NCBI GenBank assembly: GCA_964016885.1 | Contig: OZ024743.1 | Location: 213,466,001-213,530,000, forward strand | Direction of reading: 5' to 3' | Origin: Eledone cirrhosa | Lineage: Eukaryota | Length of the DNA: 64,000 nucleotides | Shown here: piece after piece, positions 36,629-62,673 of the stretch | Numbering within the stretch: position 1 is the first letter of the stretch | Layout: each line of letters begins with the position of its first letter | Notes under the pieces: generated by a model | The model's database searches: none | Seen by the model: the letters and a program-made list of their open reading frames with translations, nothing else | What the model was told of the DNA's origin: nothing | Position numbers and translations under genes: made by a program

Positions 36629-36656
<28 letters not shown>

Positions 36657-36658
<2 letters not shown>

Positions 36659-37199: not shown

Positions 37200-37203
<4 letters not shown>
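37001..37203 (-). mobile_element. Short fold-back Penelope-like 3' terminus in (TA)n
   Basis: Reverse-oriented sibling of 36657, with a duplicated CGACGGCTAT.TCTGGAC at the hairpin centre. Confidence 0.88.
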
Positions 37204-37234
<31 letters not shown>

Positions 37235-38945: not shown

Positions 38946-40089
38946 AAGAATTATAATATATGAAATATATGGATACTGTTACTATGTTTGGAAGCATATT
39001 CTTAATATAAGATGTTAAATTTTTTATTATATTCAATAGTATATTATTTGATACTACTAAGAGCCTTTAGCTTATTTGAATGACGATAAATGATAAAGTC
39101 AAAATGCTTCTTGATACTTTCGAAAAATGATATTTTGGCTTCGAGCTATAAGATATATTTACACTTATATTTATGTGGGGAGTGATATTAATTTTGTATT
39201 AAACGTATGCGAAATAAATATATTTTTAGTCAGCATACCAAGTAATGAGTAATGAGTTTTTAAAAAGTCTAAGCCTGTCTCAAGATATCAGGCCGGTGGT
39301 TATCCCAGTTAAGCGCCTGAAGCTACAATATTTCAGCTGCTAGACACGGGAAGCTATCTATACTCTGTAGTACTCAATTTATAGCGAAATTGATTGGGAC
39401 CATTTCTAAGTTTATCACCTTCACCGTTGACAAGTTACCTGTTAAAAGCATTTCGGATAATTGTTCAAGGGCATACTTATTTACTGATGACGATTTCACT
39501 CCTTGTTTCATATAATTTTATGTCCTACGTATTTCTTATAACCATATTTTCTCGACTGATGCACCATATTTTTCCTAAATTTCGAATACATTCAAACGAA
39601 CTTTATTCTATTCTTGTGGGTTTCTTGTTATTACCTCGCAATCTTTTCCTGGTTGTTTGAAATACCTTCGGGTTTCATTTTACCATTCCTTTTTCTGGAA
39701 TTCCTATAGTTATTTCCTACAGTTATTTCCTTATAGATGTGACTGAATATAGTTCTCATTATGTAATATGTTATCATGTTGGAACACAATATTTCAAGAT
39801 TATGCCAAACAAATTTTCCATTTCCATGATGCTATTTTACTGCCTAGTTATTGTCTGTTACATTTGTAGATTCTACAAATTGAATTTCCTTGTATTTATA
39901 TTATACATCTCGTTTGTATAATTTTTCGTTTTAAGAAATTGGTTATCTAACTACAGAAACCTAATGTAAACATTATGTACTTTCATATTTCTGGTAGTTT
40001 CAAACTTATATTTTATAGAAATATCACTGTTTTGAACCACATCTTATGTTGTTCTTTATTAGCATCATTTTTCATTAATGGAATTTTCC

Positions 40090-40090
<1 letters not shown>

Positions 40091-40139
<49 letters not shown>

Positions 40140-40182
40140 TTATCTATGTCTATCTATCTAGCTATCAATTTATCTATCTATC
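40091..40182. repeat. (TCTA)n tetranucleotide repeat
   Basis: Direct reading of the sequence. Confidence 0.93.
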
Positions 40183-40204
40183 AAACAACCTAACTCCCCC
40201 TCTC

Positions 40205-40235
<31 letters not shown>

Positions 40236-40271
40236 ATATATACATATATAAACCTATATATATGTGTATGT

Positions 40272-40334
<63 letters not shown>

Positions 40335-40335
40335 T

Positions 40336-40368
<33 letters not shown>

Positions 40369-41049
40369 AACACACAAATATATAAATATATATATCTTTC
40401 TTATAGAAAGATAGAAAGGAAAGGCTGTTTTCTATACATCAATAGATATATCTACATATTTCTTAGTCAATCTATCCATATATCTATATTTTATAAATGT
40501 ATTCATCTGAACCTATTTTTATTCCGGAGCACTCAATTACCCTTGAGAATACTTCTAATTAATTGGAGTATCTAAAATAGATAATTGACCTTGTATAAAC
40601 TTTAGATAAAGAGCTGCAAATATTCGGTCAGCTGAAACTACGTGCCTATATGTATATCAAATAAGTATATGTACATATCAGTGTATGGTGTGTATGCTGT
40701 GTATAAATGTGGCTTGTACACATACAGACACAGACACATATATAAAGATGCAGGGACACTATAAGCGAAAGTTATGTTATAAAAAATGTGTTTATATGGA
40801 ACTTAACTTCGGATGTTTGTATAAGTATACACACACACACACATTCATTCTGTCAAACCTTATATATATATATATAAGGTTTCACAGAATGAATGATTTT
40901 ATAATTATTTCATTAAATATAACCGGGTTCGATAGGTATGAAAATCTTATTAAATATTATATGTTAAATATGAAATATAAAATAAAATATTTCTCCTGCA
41001 TTCTGTGAGCAGTTGGAATATATGTGAGTTTTCTGTCAAAGTTTCTCGT

Positions 41050-41085
<36 letters not shown>

Positions 41086-41096
41086 GAAGAAGAATG

Positions 41097-44000
41097 TTTT
41101 CTTTATTAACCACAAGGGTTTACATAAAGTAGACATTAAAGACAGTACAGGACAATACAGGACGGTACAAATGGGCATTTCTGCGTGTAAAAAAACAGAG
41201 GATGTAATAAAATAACAAAGAAAAATTCCTCACAAGGGGGGAGACTTCTGAGGGATATTTGTGGAGAAAGCCCATTAAAAGACCACAGTGACCCTGACCA
41301 CCAGGGTAAGTGCCCTCTCTCAGTTTTCCACCTTTAATTTACAGACACATACTCAGAGTAGGCCCATTCACTCGGGCCATACTTGCTTCTCTCACCCATC
41401 TTTCAACAAAATGCTGGGAAGAGAGCACTTCCCTCTCTACCCTGATTTTCCTTTTCAAATGAAATTTGAAAAAGTTAAGCAGGGCATCATCGAAGAGGTA
41501 AGTGCTCGTCTTCAGCCCTTTCAAACGTGTCCACCATACTATCTCTTTTGTCATGGCCACCAGACAGATAAAAACTGCCTGCCCTTCCCAGCTAGAGGAA
41601 GAGAGCGGAGCATTCCTCACGATGGACTCAGCTGATAGCCGGATCCGTCGTACACGTGACAGCAGGTGTTCGACATAAACCCACAAGTCATCAATGCTCG
41701 GACACTGGACGAGTGCGTGCAGGACGGTTTCGTCGCCCTGCGCGGATCTCGGACATGCCCGGCTGACGGCACCTCCATGCCTGTAGAGTTTATCCCGAAC
41801 TGGCAAGGCTCCCCGGTAGCACTGCCAGGCCAGGGATTTCTGGAAGTTGTCCATAGGCCCCGGCCCGAAAGTCCGTCCGAATAGATTGGCTAGTTGATTT
41901 TCGTCGACGCCTAGAGTTTTTCCAAGTACGTCGTCGCTCTTCCCCTCCACTAATCCTCTATAGAACGCCAAGGTGGAGTTTCCACCGATCACATTGCCCG
42001 ATTGGTCGAGGGTTTTGAGCGCCTGAAGACATTCCAGTCTCCAGGCGCTCCCTCTCGGTCTTCGCTTGACCCAGGACTGCAGCTCCGTCAAGGAAACGAG
42101 CTGGGGAATACGTGTCTAGCAAACCGTGACCACACCTGATCACCGTCGAGGAAGAGGTGGAGATGTCGTAGCCTGAGCGCGTGTCTGCGCATCATCAGCC
42201 ACGGCATGCCCAGCTCTCCACGTAGCGGGTGTTGACAGCAGAATGACCGCCTGACCATCGGAGCGCGTCCCTTCCACAAAAAGCGAAAGAGCAAACGTCC
42301 AGCGCAGTCAGGCGGGGCTTAGGACAAGGTACGACGGTCAGGCGGTAGCAGATGACACACGCGATGTACGCGTTAGCCACCTCCACTCGACCTTTCAGGG
42401 ATAGCTTTCTCTCCGCCCATTTCTGGGTGAGAGAAGCCACCCTGCTCGTCACTTCGTCCCAGTTTTTGTCAGTCTGGAGGTCCGGACCGAACCAGACCCC
42501 GAGCAATTTAACCGGTCCGTCCGTCCAGCGCTCGACGGCACTGTTGGACGGCATGGACCTGCCTCTCCAGGTGCCGAGCTGCAGGCCCACTGACTTTCCT
42601 GGTTGATCATTGCTCCTGTCACCGCTTCGTATTCTCTTAGTGTAGTGCCGATCGCCTCGATGTGTTTGGCGTTCGACACCACTACGGTGACATCGTCCGC
42701 ATATGCTGACACGGATATTCCGCATCCTAGTTCGCGCGGGACACCTCTCAACGTCTCCAGTTTGTGCAGTAAGGGCTCGAGAGTCAATACGTACAAGAGG
42801 GACGAGAGGGGACATCCTTGGCGGACCGAGCGCATTATGTTGAACGGTTCAGAAAGGTGACCGTTCACTCTCACCACAAGCAGATGTCGCTGTGCATAGC
42901 AGCGATCCAGCCTCTGAAGACGGGCCCAAAGCCAGCCGCCCTCAGGACTGCCGCTAGGTAACGATGGTCGACCCTATCGAAAGCTTTCGACTGATCTAAA
43001 TTGATCAAGGACCCACCGGTGCCAGGTTCCCTAGCTACCCTCTCTACGATGTATCGCATGAGGTGGAGGTTGTCGTGGATGGATCTGTCGGGAATGGCGC
43101 ATGTCTGCGCCTCTCCCACCAGACCACCAACGACAAGCGCCAACCTCTTTGCTAGCACCTTGGCCAAAATCTTAAACTCTGTGTTTAGCAGAGTTATGGG
43201 CCGGAAATTTTCTATCTTATCCCCCTTGTTCGGATCCTTTCTCAGCAGTGCCACCGCTCCTCGGCTCACAGAACTGGGAATTCTCCCGTTCTGTTGCCAG
43301 TTGCAGTAGACGTCCGCCAAGAGGCCTCCGAACAAGTCTGGCATCTGTACGTAAAGTTCATAGGGCAGACCATCCAAACCAGGCGATTTACCCCTTGTGC
43401 AGCCAGTCATTGCCTCCCGTACTTCAGCGGCTGTTATCGGCTTTTTGCAGCACTCCGCCTCAGTGGCCGAGTGCCGCGGCAGTCCGTCGAGGTAGACACT
43501 AAAGTCCATCCCTCGACCCGGCCCACCGCTGTGCCCCCGAACAGCTGAGCGAAGTGTCGCTGAAAAGCTTCACACATTTGCCCGGGATCGTGTAGCATGC
43601 GCCCGTCGTGGTCCACCAAAGACCGGATCGTGGCTCTGTTGCCACGACGCGCCTCCGCCACTCGGGCCCATTGAACGGCTTTCGTCCCCTCGTGTCTGAG
43701 AGCACGCACCCTAGCTCTGACAACGCAGCCTTCGTGCTTTGCATTGAAGAATTGGTCAAGGGCCAATTTCGCCGCAAGCACGTCGGTCGCGAGGCCTTTG
43801 CTAAGCGCCTCGTCTAATTTTCTAACTAGTTCTCCCTCTGCTCTATTTTTCTCTATTGCTAAAGCCTTACTAAACCTAATGGATTCTATTCTAATCGCTC
43901 TTTTCAGAGCAAACCACCACTTGTTGTTGACGATGGCCCCCGTCAACGCCCGCTTAACTAGTTCGCTAATCCGGTCTCTGTAGGCCTTGCGCGCTGGTAA

Positions 44001-46667
44001 GGACGCGTTTAGCTTCCAGTAGCCGGATCCTCGTCTATGAAGTCTATCTAAGTCAAGCACACAGATCACGAATTTGTGGTCCGTGTAGCTGACTATCTTG
44101 AATTGTGGACAGCCTATGCTAAACCTATCTATTTCCCTACAAAATACTCTATCTAGCTATGATCTGGATGACCCTATGCTATTTGTCCAAGTCCACATTG
44201 GCACATTCGGGAAATCCAATCGGTACCTGTCAGACAGTTCAAAACGCCTGAGCAGGTTGGTGAGGCTCTTGCACCCTCCACCCCTATTCGCTAATCCCAC
44301 ACAGTCCCAGCGTGCATCTAAGATCCCGTTCCAGTCGCCCACTAACACTAAAGAGCGGGACGTTCCAAGAAAGGTCTCCAGACGCCGGAAGAAATCAGGC
44401 CGCCCTGCTCCTGTCGGGGCATAGACGGCCACTAACCTGAAAGCTTGCCCGTCTCCACTGGTCACGTCCAGCACCACCAACATACCCTCTGGATCCAGGA
44501 AGATGGCCCGTATAGCGAGATCCAAACCTCTACGAAAAAGCACAGCAACTCCCCCCCCCCCCGATCCAGGACGGCTGGGTGATGCGTACACATCGTAGCC
44601 GCCGAAGATCGGTGCGAAGGCCCGTGCTTCGAAGATTCTGGTCTCGCTGATGGCCACTACATCTATGTTTAGTGACCTGACGTCGTTGAGTAGGTGACCC
44701 TGCTTCCATGACGACCCCAAGCCACGCGCATTTATGCTGCCTATTCTGAGTAAGGTCATCTTTAAAATGGAGTGGAAAAGATGGGAAAGACCACTTACCG
44801 TACTTTTCGTAGAGGAAGGATGGTTTTTCCATCCCTTTTCACTTGATCGTCTGGTGAAGGGACCGTTGAATCGTCCCTTCGGCTGGTCGTCGGCTCTTCT
44901 ATGAGTATGTCCGAATATACTCTCCGGTTGAGAGTCCCCCCTAGGTCTATGAAATCACCAACTGCGTTGGGGCATTTCGTTTTAATGTTTGTTTATTGTT
45001 TCTGTGCTATTTTTACCAGTCTTATGTTCGTTGGCGTTTTGATTGGTGCTGGTATTATGTAGTCGTGCTGTGAAATGTCTGTATGTTCAATTATGTAAGT
45101 CATTAGTTTCTTGTTGTGTGTATTTATTGCCGTGCATTTGTTTTTCTGGGGGTGAGGTATGGTTCTGCTATTTTCTGGTCGTTGTTGCTGGGTGTGTGTG
45201 TTTTGTTGTTGTGTTTGTGATGTTGGTGCTTGTGGTGGTGGTGTTGAAGGTGTTGTTGTTGTTGGCGGTGGGGTTGTTGCCGGTGTTGATGGTGGTGCTA
45301 GTGTGGGTGGTGATGGTGTTGGTGGTGCGAAAGCATTTCGGGCGTTTGCCCTCAACATTTATGGGCATTTGAGTGCCGTTATCGAAGTCTAACACATCCA
45401 GGATAGCTTCGATGCACTCCTGGTTGGTTTGGATTAACATCTCAACGGAGGTGCCGACCCAATCTTTTCTTACTTTTTTCTGTACTTGCAGTACAGTTGT
45501 TTTGTCCTCGATTCCGACGAGGACAGTCGCGGCTAGCCAAGAAGGGGCCATCCGGGGGGGGGGGGGACGTGGGTCAGTTTGACACTCACAATTTTTTGCC
45601 CGCAGTAGGAGGGGGCACCAACACCATTTCCTCGCTCCTTAGGGTCACTAAGGATTGAGCCTTTGCCTCCTGGGGTGTGGCAAAAAGCACGTCTATGGTG
45701 GCATATTTCTTGCCTCGGGTGATATGCGTTTTCCGCTGCCACACAGACCCTAAGGCTTTTTGTGGCTCTTTCAACCCGACGGGATTTTGTGCTTACTGTA
45801 CGGTACGTGACCGTACAGTGCTGTTGAGTTTCGAAAAATGTTTCGGCTGCCTTGCAGATTGCTTCGCTTCTTGTAATTCCTCATTTGTTATGACGATGGT
45901 TTCCAGGTTCTTTGCGATACCTGCAAACGAGATTGGTTTTTCTTTGCTGCTGTTGTTGTTGTTGTTGATGCCGTCAGAGCTGCTGTTACTTTTGTTTTTG
46001 CTGCAGGTAATACGACTACTGCCGCCACCGCTGTTGCTGTGGTTGTTGTTGTTGTTGTTGCTGCTGCTGCTAATGCTGTTGTTGTTTATGCTGCTGCTGA
46101 TGCTGTTGCGGCTGCTACTGTTGTTTTCCTTCTCACTGTTACTGCTTCTGCTGCTGTTATTACGGCTGCTACTGCTATTATTCATGACGTCAGACGAATG
46201 AAATGGGTTTTCGTATTTCCCGCACACCTTTTTCGTCGTTGTTGTCGTCGTGGAGAAATGTTCCTTGATTTGCACGTGATTTTGTAAACTATTTTTCTTT
46301 ACTAGCGTCGCTTGCGAAAGAGAAGGGAGCGAGTGAGACACATTTAGAGAAGGGAGGGAGAGAGACAACCTTCTCTCTGCTGTAGTGACGATTCAGGAAG
46401 AAGAAAACGGAATGAGTGGGAGTGACTTGTGAAAATTCTTTTTCGTAGCCATGTTTTTTTTTGGTTTAAAATAAATACTGGGCACAAAACCCCAATAATC
46501 GGTTATTTAAACCCGAAGGGCAAAATATGGGACAGAAAGACCCTTCTCACGAGGATGAGGGTGTTTTTGTCTATAGTTTGGTTAAAGTTTTAAACAATTT
46601 ACAATTGTTATAGCGGTCGACATTTACAATACCTTACAGAGCCGAACCTCCGTCAACCATGGCATTC
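41097..46667 (-). mobile_element. Tx1/L1-type retrotransposon copy 2 (same family as copy 1) in (AAT)n
   Basis: Same 5' terminus GAATGCCATGGTTGA and same 3' UTR as copy 1. ORF2 at 41339-44759. ORF1 at 44795-46452 has a ~440-bp deletion at 45327. Confidence 0.93.
41339..44759 (-). pseudogene. ORF2 of copy 2 (APE-RT), frameshifted
   Basis: MTLLRIGSINARGL, VYAP, VGDWN, GYWKLN, FRPITLLN, AYADD, FQKSLAWQCYRGALPV. Confidence 0.93.
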
Positions 46668-46691
46668 AATAATAATAATAATAATAATAAT

Positions 46692-47146
46692 TTACCACAT
46701 TCTGAGAAGTGGGATTTTAGGATACAGACGGACAAGAAACTGGAACACAATAGACGTGACCTGGTGGTTTTGGACAAAGAAAAAAGATCGTGCCTGATTG
46801 TGGATGTGGCCTGCCCATTCGACACGAGAGTGGAAGAGAAGGAGAGGGAGAAAATTAACCGATACCAGGACTTAAAGTGGGAGGTAAAAATGATTTGGAA
46901 CTGCCATGAAGTCAAAGTGGTTCTGATTGTCATAGGCGCTCTAGGTACTATCTCAAAAGGTTTCCAGGGATGGTTAATGAAAATTGGCCCCGCCACGCTT
47001 TTTGGAACGCTTCAAAAGGCATGCTTGCTGGGAACAGCAAGAACCCTCCGATACGTCCTGAATATCTGAGGCTGCAGGTAGTGGCTTGATATTCATTTCA
47101 ACAAACTTTCCAGTTAACTAACATCAATGACTGAAACTCAAAGAAC
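46692..47146 (+). mobile_element. R4/Dong-type RLE non-LTR element, 3' fragment A, ending in (TAA)n
   Basis: WDFRIQTDKKLEHNRRDLVV...IVDVACPFD...EKINRYQDL...IVIGALG...LQKACLLGTARTLR; stop at 47069. Confidence 0.88.
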
Positions 47147-47198
<52 letters not shown>

Positions 47199-47200
<2 letters not shown>

Positions 47201-47865
47201 CCATATAATTTCAATGTGCAGTCCTATAGCTCCAACCGAATACCTAAACAGGCATGACAGAGCTGCACAATACATACATTGGATAATGTGTAAGCATTTC
47301 GACCTGCCCTATCAAAAGAATTGGTGGGAGCATCAACCACCTCCCATACTTGAAAAAGATCACATCTCAATCTTGTGGAACTTTAGCATCCAGACAGACC
47401 GAAAAATAGATGCAAATAGACCTGATATAATATTGAAGGACTTTAAAAAGAGGGTATGCCTGCTAATTGATATGTCTGTTCCAATAGACAAGAATGTATC
47501 TATAAAAACAGTTGAAAAATTGAGCAAGTATAAGGACCTGGAGATAGAAATTGGAAAAATGTGGAAATTGAGAACTAAAACAATACCAGTGGTTGTAGGC
47601 GCTCTGGGAATGATACCTAAGGGGTCTAATGATTACTTATCGCAAATCCCAGGAAACCCGCGTATAGGAGAAATACAAAAGATAGTACTAATGGGAACTG
47701 CCCATATACTAAGGAAGATTCTGTCAATATAACTCTAAACACTAAAGATGCATGTGTGAGTATGTATGTTCTTTCTTGAACATGGCGGACCCTGTTGTCT
47801 CTTGAGGTCACTGGTTGTGACTTGGTGATAACTCGTATGAACATAAATCAAGATAAATGCAACTG
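47199..47865 (+). mobile_element. R4/Dong-type RLE non-LTR element, 3' fragment B, ending in (TAA)n
   Basis: HIISMC...YLNRHD...WNFSIQTDRKIDANRPDII...IDMSVP...EKLSKYKDL...VVVGALG...MGTAHILRK; stop at 47732. Confidence 0.9.
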
Positions 47866-47888
47866 TAATAATAATAATAATAATAATG

Positions 47889-50800
47889 ATTTCTTTATTG
47901 GCCACAAGAGCTGACATCAAGAAAAACATCACAGACGGAACAGGACGGTACGATGTGGGCTTTGTGCGTGTAAATATTTTTATTATTTATATAATAAAAG
48001 AAAAAAAGACATAAAACATATATATATATATAAACAATAAAATGAAAATTTAAACAATGAAAAATTCCCCAATAGGGGAGAAACCTCCGAGGGTTACTCG
48101 TGGCGAAAACAAACAAAAGACCACGGCCACCCTGACTACCAGGGCAAGCGCCCTCTCTCAATTTTTCCATCTCTCAAACTACAGACGTATATTCAAAGTG
48201 TTCCCGTTCACTCGGACCATTCTCGCTACATTCACCCCCCTTTCAACTAACTTGCTAGAAAGCAGCACTTGCCTCTCCACCCTGATTTTCCTCTTCAAGT
48301 GAAACTTGAAAAAGTTAATTAGGGATTCGCCGAAGAAGAAAGTGTTTGTCTTTAATCCTTTTAACCTTGTCCACCACACAATCTCTTTTGCCATGGCCAC
48401 CACCAAGCAGATGAAAACCGCCTGCCCTTCCTCCTCAAAGGAAGACGGCGAGACCATCTGCACAATGGACTCAGTCGACAACCGGATCAGTCCCACACGT
48501 GACAGCAACTGATCGACATAGCTCCACAAGTCAGTAATGCTCGGGCACTGAACGAGTGCGTGCACAACGGTTTCGTCGCTATGCGCGCATCTCGTACAGG
48601 CTCGGCTGACGGTACTTCCGTGCCTGTAGAGCTTATCTCGAACCGGCAGCACTCCCCGGTAGCACTGCCAGGCCAGGGATTTTTGGAAGTTATCCATAGG
48701 CCCCGGGCTGAAAGTTCTCCGGAAGAGAGCAAACAGCTGATCTTCTTCGACGCCCAGCATCTCTCCGAGAATGTCGTCGCTCTACCTCTCCACTAGTCCT
48801 CTATAGAACGCCGAGGTGGATGTTCCAGCGATACTGGTGCCCACTTGGGAGAGGGAAGTGAGTGCCTGGAGATATTCCAGTTTCCAAGCGCTATCCCTCG
48901 GTCTTTTTCTGACCCAGGACTGCAGCTCCGTCAAGGAGACGAGCTGTGGGAAAATGTGCCTGGAGAACGGCAACCACACCCGTTCACCATCAAGGAAGCA
49001 CCAGAGATCTCGCAGCCTCAGCGCATGTTTGCGCATCATCAGCCATGGCATGCCCAGTCCTCCACGCAACGGGTGTTGACAGTAGATGGATCCTCAGACC
49101 ATGGGAGCGCGTCCCTTCCACAAAAAGCGGAAGAGGAGGCGCTCCATTTTGGTGAGAGTTGGGCTGGAGAAAGGGACGACGGTGAGGCGGTAGCAGATGA
49201 CGGATGCGATGTACGCATTCGCTACATCCGCGCGGCCTTTCAGGGACAGCTTCCTCTCAGCCCATTTCTGGGTGAGGGAGGCCACCCTGCTCGTCACCTC
49301 GTTCCAGTTTTTCTCCATCTGGAGGTCCGGTCCGAACCAGACCCCGAGCAATTTAACCGGTCCGTCCGTCCAACGCTCCACGACGCTGTCGGACGGCATG
49401 GACTTGCCTCTCCAGGTGCCTAGCTGCAAGCCCACCGACTTTTCTTGGTTTATCTTTGCTCTTGTCACCGCTTCGTATTCCTTGAGAGCGGTGCCGAGCA
49501 TCTGGACGTGTCTGGTGCTCGACACCACCACGGTGACGTCGTCAGCGTAAGCCGACTCGGATTTCCCGCATCCTAGTTCGCGTGGGACGCCCCTCATCGC
49601 CCCCAGTTTGTGCAGTAACGGCTTGAGAGCCAATACGTACAAGAGGGACGAGAGGGGACAACCTTGGCGGATTGAACGCATGATGCTGAACGGCCGCGAC
49701 AGGTGACCGTTCACCCTCACAACTGAGCAGATGTCTCTGTACATTGCTGCGATCCAACGCCTGAAAACGGACCCGAAACCGGCTGCCTCGAAGACCGCCG
49801 CCAGGTACCGATGGTCGACCCTATCGAATGCTGTGGATTAATACAAGTTGATCAGGGCCCCACCCTTGCCATGTTCCTTAACCACCCTCTCTATGATGTA
49901 TCGCATGAGGTGGAGGTTATCGTGTTTGGATCTGTCCGGAATGGCGCATGTCTGCGGCTCTCAGACCAGACCCTTGACGACAAGCGCCAACCTCGTTGCT
50001 GACACCTTGGCCAAAATCTTGAACTCTGCGTTTAACAGGGTTATGGGCCTGAAATTATCAATAACATCCCCATTGTTCGGGTCTTTTCTCAGCAGCACCA
50101 CTGCTCCCCGGCTCATAAAACTGGGAATGCTCCCGTTCTGCTGCCAGTTGCAGTAGACGTCTGCAAGAGGTCACCGAACAAGTCTGGCATAAAAGCATAA
50201 ACTCGTAGCGCAGACCATCTAAACCTGGCGATTTACCTCTTGTGCAGTTAGCCATCGCTTCCCGTATTTCACCGGCTGTTATTGGCTTTTCGCAACACTG
50301 TGCTGCGGTCGTCGAGAGCCCAGGCAGTCCGAGGAGGTATGCACTGAAGTCCATGTTCCGATCCGGGCCGCGCTGCTCCCGAACAGTTCAGCAAAGTGCT
50401 GCTGAAAAGCTTCACACATCCGCTCGGGTTCGAGCATCACGCACCCGTTTTGGTCAGACAAAGACCGAATTGTGGCTTTATTGCCACGTCGAGCCTCTGC
50501 CACCCGGGCCCATTGGACGGCTTTTGTCCCCTCGTGTTTTAGAGCACGCGCTCTAGCTCTGACAACGCAGCCTTCGTGTTTTGCGTTGAAGAATTGGTCG
50601 AGTGTCAATCTCGCCGCAAAAACGTCGGTTGCGATGCCTGTCCTAAACGCTTCTTCTAGCTTTCTGACTAGCTCTCCCTCTACTCTATTTTCCTCTATCA
50701 CTACTCCTTTACTAAACCTAATCGACTCTACTTTAATTGCCCTTTTCAGGGCGAACCACCACCTGTTGTTGACGTCCGCTCCCGTCAACGCCCGCTTAAG

Positions 50801-53800
50801 TAATACGCTAATCCGATCTCTGTAGGCCTTGCGCGCCGGGAAAGACGCGTTAAGCTTCCAGTAACCAGGCTCTTGTCTATGAAATCTGTCTATGTCGATC
50901 TCACAGATCACAAATTTGTGGTTTGTGTAGTCGACCATTTTAAATTGTGGACAACTTATACTAGCCTTATCTAGTTCCCTGCAGAATACCCTATCTAGAT
51001 ACGATCTGGATGACCCGATGCGGTTTGTCCATGTCCACATTGGCACATTCGGGTGATCCAGTCGATACCTGTAAGACAGTTCAAAACGTCTGAGCAGGTT
51101 GGTGAGGCTCTTGCACCCTCCTCCCCTATCCACTAGCCCCACACGATCCCAGCGTGCATCCAAGATACCGTTCCAGTCGCCCACTAACACTAAAGAGCGG
51201 GACGCTCCAAGAAAGGTCTCTAGACGTCTGAAGAAATCTGGCCGTCCTGCCCCTGTTGGGGCGTAGACGGCTACTAGCCTGAAAGCATTGCCTTCGCTGC
51301 CGGTCACGTCCAGCACCACCGACTTACCTTCTTGGTCCAGGAAGATGGCCCGCATCGCGAGATCCAAGCCTCTCCGAAAAAGGACGGCAACCCCTCCCCC
51401 CGATCCTGGACGGCTGGGAGATGCGTATACATCGTAGCCGCCGAAGATCGGTGCGAAGGCCCGTGCCTCGGAGATTCTGGTTTCACTGATGGCCACCACA
51501 TATATGTTTAGTGACCTGAGTTCATTGAGCAGGTGACCCTGCTTCCAATATGACCCAGGCCACGTGCATTTATACTGCCTATTCTGAGTACAGCCATGTT
51601 GGATGAGAAACGGCGCAAATGAGAAAGGGTCACTTACCTTGTTCGTGTGGTGAAGGGACAGTAGAACCGTCCCTTTCGCTGGTCATGGGTGTTTCCAAGA
51701 GGATGTCAGTGTATATCCTCTTGGTAACCGTCCCTCTGACGCTCTGAAGTGGCCAACTGCGTTGGGGAATTTTTGTTTTAAAGGTTTGTATTGTTCTATT
51801 GAGATTTCGATGATGCTTATGTTTGTCGGGAGAGTTCTTGGTATTGGTGGGGTGTAGTAGCTTTTTTTCCGTGATGTCTGTGTGCTGCTTTATATATTTT
51901 ATGAGTTCTTTTTTTGCTATGTTTATGGCTGTGTACTTTTTTGGGGGGAGGGGTGATTTTGTTGCCGTTTTCTCCTTGTTGCTGTTTGGTGTGTGTGTCT
52001 TGTTGTTTGCGTTGTTGGTGTTTGTGGTGGTGTTGCTGCAAGTTTCCTTGCTGACTTTACCTCTCTTTGTATGCCTTCGCTTTTGGAGGGTGAATCTAAG
52101 GGTTTTTTATTGTTTTTTGTTTTTTTGTGGCAGACTGTTTGCCACGTCACTCCCGCCTCAAACTCCATGTCGGATTCTGTGGCGTCTGGGAGGGGTATCT
52201 GCTCCACGGCTGTTGGTGGTGGTAGTGGAGCCCTCTTCGGCAATTTTGTTGCTGGTGTAGCTATTTCAAATGTAGCTATTGGTGTTGCCGCTACTGATGA
52301 TGCTGCTTTAGTTATCCGTGGCCTTGGTACGGGTGCTACGGACGTTGCCCTCCTACTCACCGTGGAAGGGGCTTCTTGGTTTGTTCCCTGTCCTATTCTT
52401 GGTAGCAGCGGACCAGCTATTGGAAGGAGAGGGGCCCTCTTCGGTGTCTCTTCGGGCAAAAGGCCCTGAGGTGACCCTTCGACCCACAGAGATAACATTT
52501 TGGCCGTCTTCCGTCTACACTTAGAGGGAGTTGGAGTCCTTCCTCGAAGTCTATGATATCGGGGATAGCCTCGATACATTCCTGGTCAGTTTGTATAAGC
52601 ATTTGCATGCCTATACCTGATCAGTTCTCTCTCCCTATTTTTTCTACTTGCAGCATGGTCGCCCTGTTCTCAATTCCAGCAAGGACAGACGCAGCCAGCC
52701 AAGGTATGGGCACGTCGGGTGAGACCTGGGTCACTTTACCCTCACAATTTTCTGCCCGCGGTAGGAGGGCACCAAGACTAACTCCTCACTCTTTAGGGTT
52801 TCCAAAGAGTGAGACTTTGCTTCCTGGGGTGGTGGCGAAAAGTACGTCTACTGTGGCGTACTTTCTGCCTCGGGTGATGTGGGTTTTGCGTGCCAGACGC
52901 ACCCCAATGCCTTTTGGATTTGAGCCTCCGTGGCTCTCTCCACTCGATGTGAGATTTTGCTTACGGAGCGGTAAGTCACCGTCCGTAGCTGCTGGTCCTT
53001 GAAAAAATCGGGTGGAGGTTTCAGGGAAACTCTATTTGCGCTTCTTGTCACCATGGCCCTTGCGACTGCCATCTCCTCCTCTGTGACTCGATATTTCGGG
53101 CGAAACCTGCAAAAGAAATGGTCCCTTTTTCAGCAGCACCACTATTGCTGCCGCTACTGGTCTTACTGGTGGTGCTGAGGTCGCTATTACAGGTATCGGT
53201 GTTATTGTTGTTCTTTTCGCTGGTACAGTTGTTGGTGTTGTTTTCGTTGATACTGTTGCTGCTGTTACTGTTATTGTGGCTGTTGTTATTATTGTTGTTT
53301 TTGTTGATACTGTTCCTACTATTATTGTTGTTGTGGCTGTTGTTATTGTCATTGTTATTGTCGTTCTCGACCTTACCGCTGTTATTTTTGTTATTGTTGT
53401 TCTCGACCTTACCGCTGTTATTTTTGTTATTGTCGTTCTCGACTTTACCGCTGTTATTTTTGGTGTTGTTGTTGGTGATGTTGTTGGTGTTATTGTTGGT
53501 GTTGTTTGTGTTAGAAATATTTGGTAATTTTAAATCTGTAACAATCTTTTTTCGTTTGTAATATTTTCGTTTATATTTACCTCCGCTGGAACGCTGTCTT
53601 GTTGATATGCTGATAAAGTCTCCATCTCTCTGTGTTGTCTGACAGCGCTCTCTCTCTTTGTGTTATGCATGTTGACATTTTTCAAAAAAAATATTTTTAC
53701 ACAAATACGAATACGACACCCCGTAAAGGGGTGCCGTATTATTTACTAGTGAACCCCTGTATCAGATGGGTCTCTTCTTCTAAACTTTTATCAAATTTAA

Positions 53801-53887
53801 AACTTGAATAAAAGGCTTAGAACGGTTAAAAAAGAGGTAAAACGTTGAAAAAGACTGGTGGCGATAAGAAACGTGGCTTCACCAGCA
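47889..53887 (-). mobile_element. Tx1/L1-type retrotransposon copy 3 (diverged subfamily) in (AAT)n
   Basis: ORF2 at 48179-51597. ORF1 at ~51630-53678 with knuckle CYLCGSKGHLRAFC. Distinct 5' and 3' UTRs. AAT runs on both sides. Confidence 0.92.
48179..51597 (-). pseudogene. ORF2 of copy 3 (APE-RT), frameshifted
   Basis: VAISET, VYAP, SYLDRVF, GYWKLN, IRQGCPLS, AYADD, CTRC...ETVVHALVQC. Confidence 0.92.
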
Positions 53888-53892
53888 ACAAC

Positions 53893-53949
<57 letters not shown>

Positions 53950-53952
<3 letters not shown>

Positions 53953-54139
53953 TGTTTCTACTTTTGGCACAAGGCCAGCAATTACCCAGTACATTACTGG
54001 TACTTTATTTTATCGACCCCGTAACGATGAAAGGCAAAGTTAACCTCGGCGGGATTTGAACTCAGAATGGCAGGGGCCGAAACTCTATGCATCAAAGCAT
54101 GGCGACCGACGCTCTACCGATACTGCCTATCCACCGCCC
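53950..54139 (-). mobile_element. tRNA-derived SINE inserted in (AAT)n
   Basis: Same family as 18132. AAT runs on both sides. Confidence 0.9.
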
Positions 54140-54159
54140 TTAATAATAATAATAATAAT

Positions 54160-57100
54160 TCTTTCTTTATTAACCATAAGGGTTTACATAAAGGAGACAT
54201 TAAGGACAGTACAGGACAATACAGGACGGTACAAATGGGCATTTCTGATGTGTAAAAAAACAAAAAAACAGAGGATGTAACAAAAAAATAACAATGAAAA
54301 AATTCCCCAATAGGGGGGAGACTTCCGAGGGACATTTGTGGAGAAAGCCCATTAAAAGCCAGAGTGACCCTGACCACCAGGGCAAGTGCCCTCTCCCAGT
54401 TTTCCACCTTTAATTTACAGACACATACTCAGAGTAGGCCCATTCACTCGGGCCATACTTGCTTCCTCACCCATCTTTCAACAAAATGTTGGGAAGAGAG
54501 CACTTCCCTCTCTACCCTGATTTTTCTTTTCAAATGAATTTGAAAAAGTTAATAAGGGCATCACCGAAGAGGTAAGTGTTCGTCTTCAGCCCTTTCAAAT
54601 GTGTCCACCATACTATCTCTTTCGCCACGGCCACCAGACAGATAAAAACTGCCTGCCCTTCCCGGCTAAAGGAAGAGGGCGGCGCAATCCTCACGATGGA
54701 CTCAGCTGATAGCTGGATCCATCCTACACGTGACAGCTGGTGTTCGACATAAACCCACAAGTCATCAATGCTCGGACACTGGACGAGTGCGTGCAGGACG
54801 GTTTCGTCGCCCTACGCGCATCTCGGACATGCCCGGCTGACGGCACCTCCATGCTTTTAGAGTTTATCCCGAACTGGCAAAGCTCCTCGGTAGCACTGCC
54901 AGGCCAGGGATTTATGGAAGTTGTACATAGGCCCCAGCCCGAAAGTTCTTCCGAAGAGATTGGCTAGTTGATTTTTGTCGACGCCTAGAGATTCTCCAAG
55001 TACGTCGTCGCTCTTCCCCTTCACTAATCCTCTATAGAACGCCAAGGTGGAGTTTCTACCGATCACATTGCCCGATTGGTCGAGGGCTGTGAGCGCCTGA
55101 AGACAGTCCAGTCTCCAAGCGCTCCCTCTCAGTCTTCGCTTGACCCAGGACTTCAGCTCCGTCAAGGAGACGAGCTGGGGAAAGACGCGTCTAGCAAACG
55201 GCGACCACACCTGATCACCGTCGAGGAAGAGGTGGAGATGTCGTAGCCTGAGCGCGTGTCTGCGCATCATCAGCCACGGCATGCCCAGCCCTCCACATAG
55301 CGGGTGTTGACAGCAGATGGACCGCCTGACCATCGGAGCGCGTCCCTTCCACAAAAAGCGAAAGAGCAAACGCTCCAGCGCAGTCAGTCGGAGCTTAGTA
55401 CAAGATACGACGGTCAGGCGGTAGTAGATGACGGACGCGATGTACGCATTAGCCACCTCCGCTCGACCTTTCAGGGATAGCTTCCTCTCCGCCCATTTCT
55501 GGGTGAGAGAAGCCACCCTGCTCGTCACTGTCCCAGTTTTTGTCCGTCTGGAGGTCCGGACCGAACCAGACCCCTAGCAATTTAACCGGTCCGTCCGTCC
55601 AGCGCTCGACAACACTGTTGGACGGCATGGACCTGACTCTACAGGTGCCGAGCTGCAGGCCCACTGACTTTTCCTGGTGATCATTGCTCCTGTCACCGCT
55701 TCATATTCTCTTAGTGTAGTGCCGATCGCCTCGATGTGTTTGGTATTCGACACCACTACGGTGACATCGTCCGCATATGCTGACACGGATCTTCTGGATC
55801 CTAGTTCGCGCGGGACCCCCCTCAACGTCTCCAGTTTGTGCAGTAAGGGTTCGAGAGTCAATACGTACAAGAGGGACCAGAGGGGACATCCTTGGCGGAT
55901 CGAGCGCATGATGTTAAACGGTTCCGAAAGGTGACCGTTCACTCTCACAACAGAGCAGATGTCGCTGTGCATGGCAGCGATCCAGCCTCTGAAGACGGGC
56001 CCAAAGCCAGCTTCCTTCAGGACTGCTGCTAGGTAACGATGGTCGACCCTATCGAAAGCTTTCGACTGATCTACATTGATCAAGTACTCACCCGTGCCAG
56101 GTTCCCTAGCTTCCCTCTCTACGATGTATCGCATGAGGTGGAGGTTGTCGTGGATGGATCTGTTGGGAATGGCGCACGTCTGCGCCTCTCCCACCAGACC
56201 ACCAATGACAAGCGCCAACCTCTTTGCTAGCACCTTGGCCAAAATCTTGAACTCTGTGTCTAGCAGAGTTATGGGCCTGAATTTATCTATGTTATCCACC
56301 TTGTTCGGATCCTTTCTCAGCAGCGCCACAGCTCCTCAGCTCACAGAGCTTGGAATTCTCCCGTTCTGTTGCCAGTTGCAGTAGACGTCCGCCAAGAGGC
56401 ATACGAACAAGTCTGGCATCTGTACGTAAAGTTCATAGGGCAGACCATCGAAACGAGGCGATGTACCCCTTGTGCAGCCAGTCATTGCCTCCCGTACTTC
56501 AGCGGCTGTTATAGGCTTTTCGCAACACTTCGCCTCAGTGGCCGAGAGTCGCAGCAGTCCGTCAAGGTAGACACTAAAGTCCATCCCTCGATCCGGCCCT
56601 CCGCTGCCCCCGAACAGCTGGGCGAAGTGTCGCTGGAAAGCTTCACACATTTTCCCGGGATCGAGTAGCATGCGCCCTACGTGGTCCACCAACGATTGGA
56701 TCTAGGCTTTGTTGCCACGACGCGCCTCCGCCACTCGGGCCCATTGAACGGCTTTCGTCCCCTCGTGTCTGAGAGCACGCACCCTAGCTCTGACAACGCA
56801 GCCTTCGTGCTTTGAATTGAAGACAGTTCAATACGCTTTGAATTCAGACAGTTCAAAACGCCTGAGCAGGTTGGTGAGGCTCTTGCACCCTCCACCCCTC
56901 TCCGCTAATCCCACACAGTCCCAGCGTGCATCTAAGATCCCGTTCCAGTCACCCACTAACACTAAAAGCGGGACCTTCCAAAAAAAGGTCTCCAGACGCC
57001 GGAAGAAATCAGGCCGCTCTGCTCCTGTTGGGGCATAGAGGGCCACTAGCCTGAAAGCTTGCCCGTCTCCGCTGGTCACGTCCAGCACCACCAACTTACC

Positions 57101-59607
57101 TTCTGGGTCCAGGAAGATGGCGCGTATGGCGAGATCCAAGCCTTTCCGAAAAAGCACAGCAACTCCACCTCCCGATCCAGGACGGCTGGGAGATGCGTAC
57201 ACATCGTAGCCGCCGAAGATCGGTGCGAAGGCCCGTACTTCGGAGATTCTGGTCTCGCTGATGGCCACTTCATCTATGTTTAGTTACCTGAGTTCGTTGA
57301 GCAGGTGGCCCTGCTTCTATGACGACCCCAAGCCACGCGCATTTATGCTGCCTATTCTGAGTGAGGTCATGTTGAAATGGAGTGGAAAAGATGGGAAAGA
57401 CCACTTACCTTACTTCTCGTAGAGGAAGGATGGTTTCTCCATCCTTTTCACTGCTTGTGGCCTCCTCAGGAAGGATGTCATTATATATCCTCCTGGAGAG
57501 TGCTTGTCGGAAGTCTCCGATGTCTTTGGGGAATTTTTGTTTTAGTGTCGTGTACGTTTTCTGTGTGATGCGAGTGATTTGTACGTGTGGAGGTGGTGTG
57601 ATCTTTTGGGTTGTTGTGTAGTCTTTTTCTGTGATGCTGGTGTTGTGTTGGATGTAGTGTAATAATTGGTTGTTGTTCAAATTTAATGCTGTTTAGTGTG
57701 TATCGTTTTGGTTGTTTTGTTTTGTTTGCGTTTGTTGTGGATTTGTTTCTGTTTCGCTTTTTGGTGACTTTTGTGGTGTTGGTGATGGTGGTGTTGGGGT
57801 TAATGATGGTGATGGTGTTGGTGTTTGTGGTGATGGGGTTGGTGATGCTGGTGTGGATGGTGGCATAGCTGTCTTAACTTTTTTGTTTGATAGTTTATTT
57901 GTTTCCCTCTGTATTTTGTTTTTGGAGGGGGAAGGAAGAGGATTTTTTTTCTTTTTTGGTTTCTTTTTCTTTTTTTCATTTTTCCTGATACCGTTTCCCA
58001 CTCCTCGTCGTCACAGTCTGTCTCCAGTTGCGATAGGTCGGGGAGTGGAAAATCCTCCACTAGGCGTTGGTTTTGGTTGTGGCGTTGTGGATGGTGTAGG
58101 CGTTGGTGCTAGTTCTGGCGCGTCGGGTGGTGGTGGTGTTGGTTTTGCTACTGTTGCTGGGGTTGTTGCTGTTACAGTTGCTTCTGTTGTTGCTGTTACA
58201 GTTGTTGCAGCCATTTCTGTTGCTGATGGTGTTGATGGTTGAGTCACTGGTGTGGGTAAGAGAAGTGGCCTCAACCTTTTAGCCTGATGGCAGAAAACTC
58301 TTAGGTGGGTTCCTTCACCACAAACGACACACCTAGGCCTTCTGCCATCGATCATTACGGTGACGTGGCTGCCGTCAGTGAGGTCTATTACCTCTGGGAT
58401 CTCCTCAATGCTTTTTTGGTCCGCTTGGATCAGGAGCTCCATCCCAGATCCGAACCAGTTCTCCTGCTTTTCTTTCGCTATTTTGATTATCCTGGTGTTT
58501 GCTTCGATGCCGGCGAGGACGGCAGCTATTAGCCAGGGAATTTCGATGGCCGGTGGAACGTGGGTCACCCTGATCTTCACGAGTCTCTGGCCACAATAGC
58601 TTGGGACGAGTGTGAAGTCGTCACTTCTTAATGGGGCCATGGAGTTTTATCTGGCCTCATGTGGTGTTTCAAAGAACACGTCCACGGTTCCATATTTTTG
58701 CCCACGTCTGATGTTGTTTTTTTTGCCCACACATGTCCCAAAGCTTTCTGGATTTGGGATTCGGATGCCCGTTCCACTCGGCGTGATTTTATGTTAATCG
58801 TCCGATAAGACACGATGCATAGGCGCCGATGCTCCATTTTATTAGGTGGGGTGGGGCAGTGGGTGGTGGGGGTGGGGGTGGTGCGGTGAGGCTGACCCTG
58901 TACCCATCTTTCTTTACCATTCTCTTGGCTTCATTTAATTCCTCCTGAGTTACCTCGATTGTTTCGCATTTCTTGGCTGCTTTGTCAAACGACACATTTG
59001 CGGTGGTGTTGATGTTTTTGTTGTTATTCTCATTGTTGTTGTTGCTGTTGTTGTTATTGTTATTTTTAGTTTCAGTTGTGGTGGTGGTGGCGTCAGTGGT
59101 GTTCGGTGTGGAAGAGTCGATTCTGGGTGAATCCATTTCGATGTCACGAGATAATAATTTATTTTTTTCTTTTGTTTCTGTTGTCGCTGTGGTGATGGTG
59201 GGGGTGGCGGATTTTACACCTGCAGTTTTTGGTAATGGCGCGAAATGAATGTCTGCATGAGACAAATTTAAATTATTGCTACTGCTTATATTTTTAGTGT
59301 TGGCAAACGTAGTAATATTTACAATGGTGGTGTTGGTGTGAGGTGTTAGTTTGTGAGTAAGGCTGTCAGCCTGGTGTGGCTGTGAGTCGTCCATGATTTT
59401 TCAAAGAAATTCTTTGTTTGATAATTATAAAAGTTTAAATTTTGGGCTCAAGGCCCCAATCGTTTTGAGTGTCCTTTTTCGAGAGCAATATATGTGAACT
59501 TATAAACACTTAACAACAACAATTTTCCATAAATGGCAATTTGAAACAACTAAAAACAACAAACCTTTGCGGAGCTCACGATAATACGATTTCCTACGTA
59601 GGTCGCC
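54160..59607 (-). mobile_element. Tx1/L1-type retrotransposon copy 4 (ORF2 of copy 1/2 type, different ORF1 and 5' UTR) in (AAT)n
   Basis: ORF2 at 54415-57370 with a ~480-bp deletion at ~56820. ORF1 at 57405-59394 with knuckle CVVCGEGTHLRVFC. Confidence 0.92.
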
Positions 59608-59628
59608 AATAATAATAATAATAATAAT

Positions 59629-60157
59629 GACTTTGTAGGCATGTCCACGTATGTTAGACACATGGAATTCAAAAAGGTACTCAGGATTGTTGTTGGCAAG
59701 ATGGTTAATAATTTTATGGGTGTTTACTAAGTCAGTTGCCAGATGTCGCTGCATCAATGAATCCATGCGCAGGGAAGCAAGGCCTTCAGAGTATGGTAGA
59801 TGTCTGATGGACGGTATTCGCTTGGTTGCACGTCTCTGAACAGTTTCCATGAGGTCAATGTTCTGAGGAAGATAGGGGTGATTGGCGATGCAAATTCTAA
59901 GTGTGGCCACACCATAGCTATATACAGCTTTAAATAGATAGCTGGTGTGCGGCTGACAAAGGTCTTGCTGAGTGATGCTAAGACACCCTCGGCCTTCTTG
60001 ACAATTTTAGAGACTGCTGACAGTAATGATCAGGTCATGTTCACAAGAAGACTTCTTGATATTAGTGTTGTGGAGGGAGTATATGGACGCTGGGCTTTTA
60101 CTCCTAAAATGCATGGTGGTACACTTGTCCTCAGCCATCTTGAGCAGCCAGTCCGTG
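59629..60157 (-). mobile_element. CR1-clade LINE 3' coding fragment
   Basis: PYLPQNIDLMETVQRRATKRIPSIRHLPYSEGL...DLVNTHKII...RGHAYK. Confidence 0.82.
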
Positions 60158-60160
60158 ATA

Positions 60161-60690
60161 TATACTGTATGCTTAATTAAAAACCTTTTGAAGACCTTTC
60201 CCTATTGTTTTAAAGCAGTGACTATGTCACTTACTTCTTTTTTTCAACAAACAAAGGGAGATAAGCTGACAGATCTCTGTTTCATACTGTTGGTAATCAC
60301 CAGAGCTTAACACTCGCCTTTGTCTTTTGAAAATTATAAATGTTGGATTCTTATAGAATTCCAGTAATAATCAGGAACTGATTATACAGAGCGATTGCCG
60401 GTACAGCAAAAATTGAAAATTAGAATTGGTGCTCTATAAGAATCCATTAATTATAATTTTCAACAGACAAAGGCGAGTGCTAAGCTCTGATGATTACCAA
60501 CAGTATGAAACAGAGATCTGTCAGCTTATTTCCCTTTGTTTGTTGAAAAAAGAAGTAAGTGACATAGTCACTACTTTAAAACAATAGCGCAAGGTCTTCA
60601 AAATGTTTTTAATTAAGCATACAGTATATTGCCAAATATACTATATATACATTCATGTATACATCGCTATTTCAGAGCACCAATTCTAAT
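60161..60690. mobile_element. Fold-back non-coding element: ~195-bp arms (60161-60357 / 60433-60628)
   Basis: Reverse-complement arms with scattered mismatches. An extra inverted piece at 60674-60690 matches 60419-60435. Short TA flanks. Confidence 0.88.
60481..60528 (+). ncRNA. Type I hammerhead ribozyme motif (canonical core); core-mutated inverted copy at 60262-60309
   Basis: TAAGCT-CTGATGA-tTAC(caaca)GTAt-GAAA-CAGA(ga)TCTG-TC-AGCTTA. The inverted copy has CTGGTGA. Confidence 0.82.
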
Positions 60691-61440: not shown

Positions 61441-61957
61441 TACTCTCAGGTCATGAATAAACTTCCTCCGTCACGCTTATTAATTTTTTAGACATTTTCC
61501 AACCCGCACTTTTTTATTCCACCCCCACCCTCCTCGCTTATTAAATTTTGCTACTCCAGCTCCGGCAAAATTTTATTGTAAGGGATTCATATTGATACAG
61601 CAGCTGGAGAATCTAATAATGGTTTCTTATATAGGCACAAGGCCAGCAATTTTGGGGGAGAGGAATGTCGATTGAATAGACCCCAGTGCGAAGCTGGTAC
61701 TTTATTTTATCGACCTCGTAAAGATGAAAGGCAAAGTTAACCTCGGCGAGATTTGAACTCAGATCGTAAAGGGCCGTAACTCTATGCTGGGAGAATCTAA
61801 TAATAATTTTATTTTACATTAAAAAACATATTACAAAAAAAGAACATTACAAGAAATCCCATATTTATGAACGCAAACTATCCCGCCTATAAGAGTTTAA
61901 GCAAATATCCAATCACTGCTTGTTCCAACCCCGCCTATTATTTGGGACACGAGAGTA
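61441..61957. mobile_element. Non-autonomous TIR element (Tc1/mariner-pogo type) with nested SINE
   Basis: Imperfect TIRs TACTCTCAGGTCATGAATAA / TTATTTGGGACACGAGAGTA with terminal TA. Confidence 0.5.
61621..61790 (-). mobile_element. 5'-truncated SINE with TSD GAGAATCTAATAAT
   Basis: SINE core and tail present. Duplication at 61607-61620 and 61791-61804. Confidence 0.85.
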
Positions 61958-61959
61958 CT

Positions 61960-62490
61960 ACCAACTCTCCTCCTCTCTATGTCTATCACACAAAACTCTC
62001 TTTTAATAACCCTCTCTATATCTACTACCACCAAATTTCCCCCTCTCTATATCTACTACATGGAACTCTCTTCGAATGCCCCTCTCTATATCAATTAACA
62101 CCAAACTCTCACCCTCTCTATATCAATTATCCCAAAACTCTCCCCCGCTCTATATCTACTATGCAACACTCTCTCTCATTCCTTCTCACTCTATCCATCA
62201 CTACAAAACTCTCCCCCTCTCTAGATGAATGAAAACCTATCTCTATCAATTCTCTCACTGTAGTCATTTACACCAAACTTTCCTCCACTCTACATAAACC
62301 ATACAACACTGTCTCCCAATCCCCTTCTCTATGTCAATTAACAACAAACTCTCCCTCTCTTTATATCTATTAGAGGTAACTCTCTTCCAATACCACTCTC
62401 TATGTCAATTAAGACCAAACTTTCCTCCTCTCTATATCTATATGCACGGAAATCTCTTCCAATCCCCTTTTCTATATCAATTACCACTTG
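61960..62490. repeat. Degenerate ~32-35-bp minisatellite (CTCTCTATATCTACTACACCAAACTCTCCCC-like)
   Basis: Recurrent CTCTCTATATC[AT]A..ACACCAAACTCTC units. Confidence 0.75.
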
Positions 62491-62673
62491 ATATAGACGT
62501 GAATTACTTTGCTCCGGACTTTTACGGATTATTGTCAAAAAAACTGAGTTCATTGCTCAATTTAATAGCATTGTTTAGTTTAACCCCTTGCCTAGGCCGT
62601 CAGACGTTGAGTCAACAAATTTTCGCCCCTCTCTGGGGCGAAATTTTCATTTTCATCTCAAAACTGTGTAGAC

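Follow-up and report, generated by a model that had tools for sequence, protein, structure and literature searches.

Six retroelement insertions strung on AAT repeats in Eledone cirrhosa point to a candidate target shared by two endonuclease classes

The stretch of the Eledone cirrhosa genome analysed here (assembly GCA_964016885.1, contig OZ024743.1, positions 213,466,001 to 213,530,000; hereafter the window, 64,000 nucleotides (nt) of AT-rich DNA) carries at 41055-59628 a train of six retroelement inserts and seven pure AAT runs, which measure 18-60 nt each and add up to 225 nt of AAT (Table 1). Three of the inserts, Tx1#2 to Tx1#4, are long interspersed nuclear elements (LINEs) of L1/Tx1 type with an apurinic/apyrimidinic endonuclease (APE) and a reverse transcriptase (RT); together with a short interspersed nuclear element (SINE) they lie on the minus strand, and two Dong-like fragments of the restriction-like endonuclease (RLE) class, Dong A and Dong B, lie on the plus strand. 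An earlier note on this DNA had described the order, strands and coordinates of the train and the absence of unique spacer DNA; our analysis confirms both, as the seven AAT runs separate all inserts and the sole departure from them is an (AAG)3 stretch at the left edge. A fourth Tx1 copy, Tx1#1, is not part of the train; it has an AAT run at each end, followed by unrelated host DNA, and provides an independent case within the window.

Table 1. Features of the AAT-separated train and of the related elements in the window.
Feature	Position	Strand	Description
Tx1#1 with its AAT runs	10162-16283 (element 10214-16238)	-	outside the train
(AAT)10, then (AAG)3	41055-41084, then to 41094	strandless	left edge of the train; borders Tx1#2 on its 3' (tail/target) side
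Tx1#2	41095-46667	-	full-length L1/Tx1-type; 5.5% from Tx1#1
(AAT)8	46668-46691	strandless	separates Tx1#2 from Dong A, their 5' ends facing it (head to head)
Dong A	46692-47146	+	455-nt 5'-truncated RLE element: RLE domain and 3' untranslated region
(AAT)17	47147-47197	strandless	Dong A tail and Dong B 5' flank
Dong B	47198-47865	+	668-nt 5'-truncated RLE element
(TAA)7	47866-47887	strandless	separates Dong B from Tx1#3, their 3' ends facing it (tail to tail)
Tx1#3	47888-53892	-	full-length, second Tx1 family
(AAT)20	53893-53952	strandless	SINE tail and 5' flank of Tx1#3
SINE	53953-54140	-	188 nt, presumably tRNA-type
(TAA)6	54141-54158	strandless	Tx1#4 tail and 5' flank of the SINE
Tx1#4	54159-59607	-	full-length L1/Tx1-type, mosaic
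(AAT)7	59608-59628	strandless	5' flank of Tx1#4; right edge
Right-flank LINE fragment	59629-60160	-	C-terminal piece of open reading frame 2 (ORF2) of an APE-RT LINE

The four Tx1 copies, all on the minus strand and each broken by frameshifts or stops, contain APE, RT and zf-RVT domains as identified by Pfam. The copies have the two-ORF architecture of the L1 group, in which ORF2 combines APE, RT and a zinc-binding domain, and the Tx1 ORF2 homolog P0126 matches human L1 ORF2p at 1e-72 versus R2 at 6e-29. Argonauta hians, an octopod, supplies the nearest named relatives of the Tx1 proteins (67% and 61%), and no named Tx1 protein occurs among the homology matches; the name Tx1 is provisional, taken from the label in the earlier note and from the architecture of the elements. 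Tx1#1 and Tx1#2 constitute one family. Tx1#3, also with a broken ORF2, differs from the other copies by 19-20% in ORF2 and by 37-44% in its 5' part. Tx1#4 is 6-7% away from Tx1#1/#2 in ORF2 and the 3' end and 42-43% away in its 5' part. The ORF2 of Tx1#2 is split into at least six frame pieces and its ORF1 lacks about 450 nt, and ~480 nt are gone from the ORF2 of Tx1#4. A CCHC knuckle is present in ORF1 of three of the four copies, among them Tx1#3, in one case with a C to F change, and has no match in Tx1#2; leads from Atlas point to CCHC and ZCCHC3-like clusters (scores 0.85-0.92), and Pfam returned nothing on the four ORF1-region pieces. No solved relative matched the Tx1 APE piece of the window, and folding the Tx1#3 endonuclease from its sequence alone gave no usable model (predicted local distance difference test (pLDDT) 37.7). 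All four copies retain a 5' end with a 5' untranslated region of ~200 nt, and both Dong copies are shorter than 700 nt. The Tx1 tails at 10180-10213 and 41085-41094 shift to (ATC)n and (CTT)n before pure ATT, so that compound microsatellites are born there. A fifth Tx1-like ORF1 with a CCHC knuckle, 29% identical to that of Tx1#4, lies at 62611-64000 (+); ahead of it, at 61957-62487, is a degenerate tandem region rich in CT.

For the two plus-strand fragments, the RLE profile A2 matches R2 proteins with an E-value of 5e-5; Dong B possesses the RHD, R-PD, D and K-Y motifs, and Dong A those of the PD region. The presence of two endonuclease classes, as claimed in the earlier note, thus stands, with APE established by Pfam in the Tx1 copies and RLE by the profile match to R2. 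Dong B is up to 64% identical to proteins of ~1200 amino acids that combine RT and RLE, such homologs carrying PF00078, and its homology begins at the second base past the AAT run. The two fragments share 41% amino-acid identity and therefore belong to two families. Their putative assignment to Dong (R4 clade) is made by domain and target, the fragments themselves being without RT; the domain agrees with the C-terminal RLE that follows a CCHC motif in the one RT-bearing ORF of that clade. Just inside the 5' junction of Dong A, at 46692-46712, ~18 codons are gone between two tryptophan codons (alignment A2). That the Tx1 and RLE elements face opposite ways, likewise noted before, is also borne out, orientation alone being weak within the window (1 in 32 by chance, counting Tx1#1).

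The contact with AAT repeats is highly selective. Nine of the ten (AAT)≥4 runs of the window adjoin a Tx1 or RLE end, a contact made by none of its 35 (AT)n, 7 (AC)n and 6 (AG)n runs, and the 39.3 kb of the window outside elements contain one (AAT)≥4 run; among the window's repeats the elements are thus specific for AAT. Runs at 3' ends are weak as proof of a target, because all six inserts have AAT-type tails. More telling are the four Tx1 5' ends, representing three different 5' sequences, and the two Dong truncation points, all of which sit directly on AAT runs. The runs at 16239-16283 and 46668-46691 touch 5' ends only and are therefore the tail of no present element. By eye, Tx1#1 shows no target duplication in unique sequence, and its duplication would therefore lie inside the repeat.

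Relatives of the Dong fragments extend this picture on the RLE side. From metagenomes, hosts unknown, the best 80 of at least 86 confirmed loci provided 46 usable 5' junctions, or 43 after removal of 3 duplicates. Among these 43 junctions of Dong B relatives, 24 have AAT only, one has both AAT and ATT, one ATT only and 17 neither, as compared with 5 AAT and 0 ATT among 1144 background windows. At the 3' ends, (AAT)≥4 is found in 23 of 45 and ATT alone in none. In 15 of the 27 rows, no more than 4 nt separate the run from the start of the alignment. The relatives of Dong B therefore exhibit an AAT and strand bias. Insertion into TAA repeats in the sense direction applies to both Dong fragments of the window (2/2) and to 25/43 of the relatives' junctions, consistent with reports that place Dong in TAA repeats and describe such repeats, in sense orientation, on its upstream side (PMC3812793, PMC1635306, PMC3774820). 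Runs in the ATT direction or of mixed AAT/ATT composition occur in loci L025 (about 5790-5890) and L051 (about 780-850), as exceptions to the strand rule. No Tx1 element turned up next to any of the Dong relatives, and another LINE fragment lies near only 2 of the 80 loci; scans of viral and genome contigs yielded no Dong relatives, and scans of metagenome contigs yielded no Tx1 relatives with flanks.

These junctions bear on a rival account of the train, namely that the AAT runs are slipped element tails and that the inserts piled up passively in an AT-rich, tolerant region. Such an account would explain why AAT/ATT repeats end all six elements and why, on one side, four of the seven runs serve as the tail of an element, and it fits the SINE copies elsewhere, which occupy short ATTAT sites only. 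However, it leaves unexplained the two runs that adjoin 5' ends only, the Dong truncation points lying on runs both here and in 25/43 relatives, the lack of unique spacer at every one of the seven junctions, and the (AT)n runs, which amount to 3.5 times more DNA and are never used. We therefore regard it as highly improbable.

The SINE of the train belongs to a family with at least six more copies or part-copies in the window, with which it shares 84-91% identity; it is presumably of tRNA type, as judged from A and B boxes recognised by eye, and Rfam returned only a chance match. Its 3' end resembles that of the Tx1 copies. Over the last 21 nt the two agree at 13-15 of 21 positions, ungapped and in register, a level reached by random 21-mers with a probability of 1e-3 to 5e-6, and both follow a common layout of a five-letter loop CUUGU, 16 nt and then the ATT tail. 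This 3' motif occurs at 10 sites in the window, 4 Tx1 and 6 SINE ends, and nowhere else in it, with one SINE end missed owing to a changed letter; it is absent from 3 Mb of simulated host DNA and from the 80 Dong-relative loci. Although the letters of the 4-pair stem differ between Tx1#1/2/4, Tx1#3 and the SINEs, pairing reaches 90.9%, and in three of the pairs both partners have changed. None of 500 shuffles scored as high, every slid control was lower, and RNAalifold recovered the stem unaided. A further 29 motif matches in prokaryote genome and viral contigs proved to be chance hits without the stem and served as controls: a stem of 3-4 pairs is present in 10/10 window matches versus 0/29 of these. 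All six SINE copies outside the train that have a 3' end are bounded by direct repeats of 6-18 nt starting with an ATTAT-like sequence, and a distant seventh copy has no direct repeat. The similarity among copies is 84-91% for the SINE and 93-95% for Tx1#1/2/4.

The earlier note had counted the SINE as a separate insert in its own right. Given the shared Tx1 3' end, it is better read as a predicted passenger of Tx1 than as a third targeter, and on balance we think such a partnership probable. Alternatively, the SINE may have been moved by another LINE (of the L2, CR1, RTE or I group) with a similar 3' end, or the likeness may be convergent, with the rest of the interpretation left standing. 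The stretch in common is only ~21 nt at the identity given above, and the comparison was made without other LINE 3' ends of this genome; moreover, the SINE partners named for molluscs are CR1 and L2 (PMC4758252), and a 2012 survey knew just three SINEs with L1-clade tails (PMC3472496). Yet the SINE and Tx1 agree in loop, 16-nt spacing, compensatory stem, tail unit and strand within the train, whereas neither of the Dong fragments, nor a third ATT-tailed end located at 61800, bears any likeness to the SINE/Tx1 3' end. A different mobilising LINE, or convergence, is thus rather unlikely, though it deserves to be taken seriously. A SINE from a second subfamily, truncated at its 5' end and bearing a target duplication of ~15 nt, lies at 61621-61830 (-), in the short ATT tail of an AATAAA-ended element, constituting a small nesting outside the train.

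In target-primed reverse transcription (TPRT), an established mechanism, the nicked strand primes on the RNA tail. As the best explanation of the locus, and one that we hold to be likely, the train would have grown by repeated TPRT into AAT runs by the Dong and Tx1 lineages, with the SINE as a passenger. With a (UAA)n tail the nick would fall on the TTA strand, and with an (AUU)n tail on the AAT strand; the Dong-like RLE lineage, with its two families, would then nick the TTA strand and leave (TAA)n-tailed copies in the AAT direction, and the octopod L1/Tx1-type APE lineage, with its three 5' types, would nick the AAT strand and leave (ATT)n-tailed copies in the opposite direction. The Tx1 proteins would recognise the small 3' stem-loop with loop CUUGU, 16 nt ahead of the tail. 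We propose that the SINE faces the Tx1 way because it bears the same signal and is copied by the same proteins, and it may also accept short ATTAT-like sites. Each insertion would split a run, duplicate the target and add a tail, thereby increasing the number of runs by one and leaving the neighbours of old inserts as targets. In a toy model, the probability of a train of six is 40-350 times higher on such a multiplying pad than on a fixed one.

Two claims of the earlier note can be judged against this proposal. The convergence of APE and RLE elements on one target from opposite strands is upheld on the RLE side by the 25 AAT and 2 ATT junctions among 43 and by the literature on Dong, and on the APE side only by the window copies (4/4); a family counts as target-specific when the target occurs in more than 20% of its flanks (PMC4494074), and the Tx1 lineage may be (ATT)n-specific across the genome. 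The self-extending landing pad is made plausible by the toy model and rests on one train, so positive feedback may, rather than must, have operated.

Several observations weigh against repeated TPRT into AAT runs by these lineages. Among the Dong-relative junctions, 17/43 have no run and 2 have ATT, and all 80 loci are nearer to Dong B than to Dong A and mutually non-independent. The Tx1 specificity comes from four copies, three of which belong to one cluster, and no AAT run lies upstream of the fifth Tx1-like ORF1 (62.6-64 kb, +). The tail shared by the SINE and Tx1, short as it is, was noticed after the fact, and the covariation in its stem represents three lineages, not eleven. The feedback estimate derives from three seed runs (one train, one single and one empty run). 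Tx1#4 is mosaic, compatible with a family-level 5' swap or with local recombination. Finally, the right-flank LINE, which we take to be CR1-like by its motifs, stops exactly at the AAT run, ~51 codons early, and its remainder and 3' end are absent from the window. Because this LINE is cut, the outer flanks restore no single intact site when rejoined, and a deletion, a recombination or a join must therefore have happened somewhere; the descent of all seven runs from one microsatellite, as the earlier note had it, does not follow from the flanks. A candidate continuation of the LINE over the AAT run into Tx1#4, sought by tblastn, was rejected, as its score equals that of shuffles (p 0.41-0.63).

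These flanks and the mosaic copy leave two further accounts of the train to be weighed. AAT runs or Tx1 copies may have served as points of deletion or of ectopic recombination that brought smaller AAT-flanked inserts together from different places; targeting would then be real, but the train would not have grown at a single pad. The cut LINE, the mosaic Tx1#4 and the internal deletions in Tx1#2 and Tx1#4 would all suit such a history. Nevertheless, Tx1#4 switches where ORF1 gives way to ORF2, the point at which the three families part from one another, a pattern also seen in family-level 5' swaps; all element ends in the train are intact, and one flanking deletion would account for the cut LINE while leaving the train whole. 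Joined clusters are hence unlikely, and it may well be that all six inserts landed at this locus. The other account, an assembly artefact in which contigs were mis-joined at AAT runs, takes its force from the pure simple repeat at every junction, from the outer flanks that fail to rejoin, and from sampled words of 38600-48500, of which the best sequencing runs contain only 0.61-0.64. On the other side, runs of 18-60 nt are short relative to long reads, the window is free of N, its long (TA)n arrays and 99% inverted repeats are intact, the neighbours are all different elements with no collapsed copies, and a mis-join would still require AAT flanks on every element. We consider an artefact very unlikely.

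Precedent exists for each ingredient of the proposal. Repeat-targeting, Dong on TAA, opposite-facing arrays and the use of a LINE 3' tail by a SINE are already known, whereas the pairing of Tx1 and Dong on AAT and the SINE-Tx1 link appear to be undescribed. Dong of the R4 clade, in Bombyx, Anopheles and Biomphalaria, is of the same RLE class in TAA repeats and does not differ in mechanism, but here two families share their runs with an APE lineage; PMC3812793 places Dong among APE-type elements, in contrast to the RLE fragments found here. Dong-R4 and L1-Tx1 elements are abundant in octopods (PMC13282606, PMC8967140, PMC9115989, PMC10294476), Dong-R4 occupying 92.7 Mb in 51 families in Octopus vulgaris (PMC13282606), and the available parts of these four papers say nothing on the targets of either group in octopods. 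No literature on the abundance of AAT in octopus genomes was found. Within the Tx1 clade, microsatellite targets include (TC)n for Kibi, (TTC)n for Koshi and (TTCC)n/(TTTC)n for crocodilian families (PMC4494074). Those elements and ours are alike L1-group APE elements in a simple repeat, yet the target here is (ATT)n and not a pyrimidine tract. No (ATT)n-flanked Tx1 lineage was found in the literature searched, including the available text of PMC4494074, most subscription papers and Repbase lying outside that scope. RLE families on (TG)n are likewise known (PMC4640811).

The closest analogue in arrangement is TRAS/SART, in which two lineages form arrays in opposite orientation on one repeat (PMC10088271). 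Both of those belong to the R1 clade of APE elements and target the telomeric repeat, whereas the train combines APE elements of the L1 group with RLE elements on AAT, an interstitial microsatellite; it works like a TRAS/SART-type array but is not one. Two endonuclease classes on one repeated target are exemplified by R1 (APE) and R2 (RLE) in 28S rRNA genes (PMC1635306). There the two use separate fixed sites in a gene, and here the two classes share the AAT repeat. Insertion of R1 or R2 consumes its site and does not multiply it.

For the SINE, the nearest parallels are the crocodilian SINEU, which is moved by the target-specific Tx1-Mar with a weaker target bias (PMC4494074), and a maize and sorghum SINE paired with a stringent plant L1, in which an L1-clade tail has a fixed loop and a compensatory stem (PMC3472496); stringent L1-clade SINE/LINE pairs were rare in that 2012 survey (PMC3472496). 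The SINEU link consists of the target and a 5' head, in contrast to the 3' stem-loop, the tRNA-type SINE and the animal L1/Tx1 lineage seen here, and the shared 3' stretch of ~21 nt compares with ~45-80 nt in published stringent pairs. In O. vulgaris, SINEs account for 11.6% of the genome (PMC13282606). The literature searched, including the available parts of PMC4758252 and PMC3747384 but not most subscription papers, names neither a Tx1 nor any other partner LINE for SINEs of octopuses.

Tentatively, and with doubt prevailing, a wider picture can be drawn in which a lineage of octopod L1/Tx1 elements is specific for (ATT)n, recognises its 3' stem-loop stringently and drives an abundant octopus tRNA-type SINE, in which AAT runs are seeded and multiplied by the SINE and Tx1 tails and exploited by Dong from the opposite strand, and in which the three types share a self-regenerating niche with trains genome-wide. 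Should the arrangement be genome-wide, a partner LINE would be named for an octopus SINE, (ATT)n would join the Tx1 targets, and the L1 group in animals would gain a rare example of stringent 3' recognition. It would also supply a mechanism for local element hotspots and a natural pair of unrelated endonucleases on opposite strands of one repeat, and it makes a countable prediction, namely geometric versus Poisson train sizes.

Other repeats of the window lie outside the AAT system. A palindromic MITE-like element of 470 nt (MITE, miniature inverted-repeat transposable element), 87% self-complementary, occupies 60160-60629 at the 5' limit of the right-flank LINE fragment. Near-perfect inverted repeats of foldback or MITE-like type, with arms of 183-375 nt that are 98-100% identical, are found at 25461-27263, 29091-29803 and 35595-36362, being nested and duplicated at 25896-27258. 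Elements of ~200 nt with a long terminal hairpin lie at 25334-25394, 29875-30065, 36656-36851 and 36994-37204; this family sits directly on (TA)n, with two copies tail to tail, and is possibly (TA)n-associated in parallel to the AAT case.

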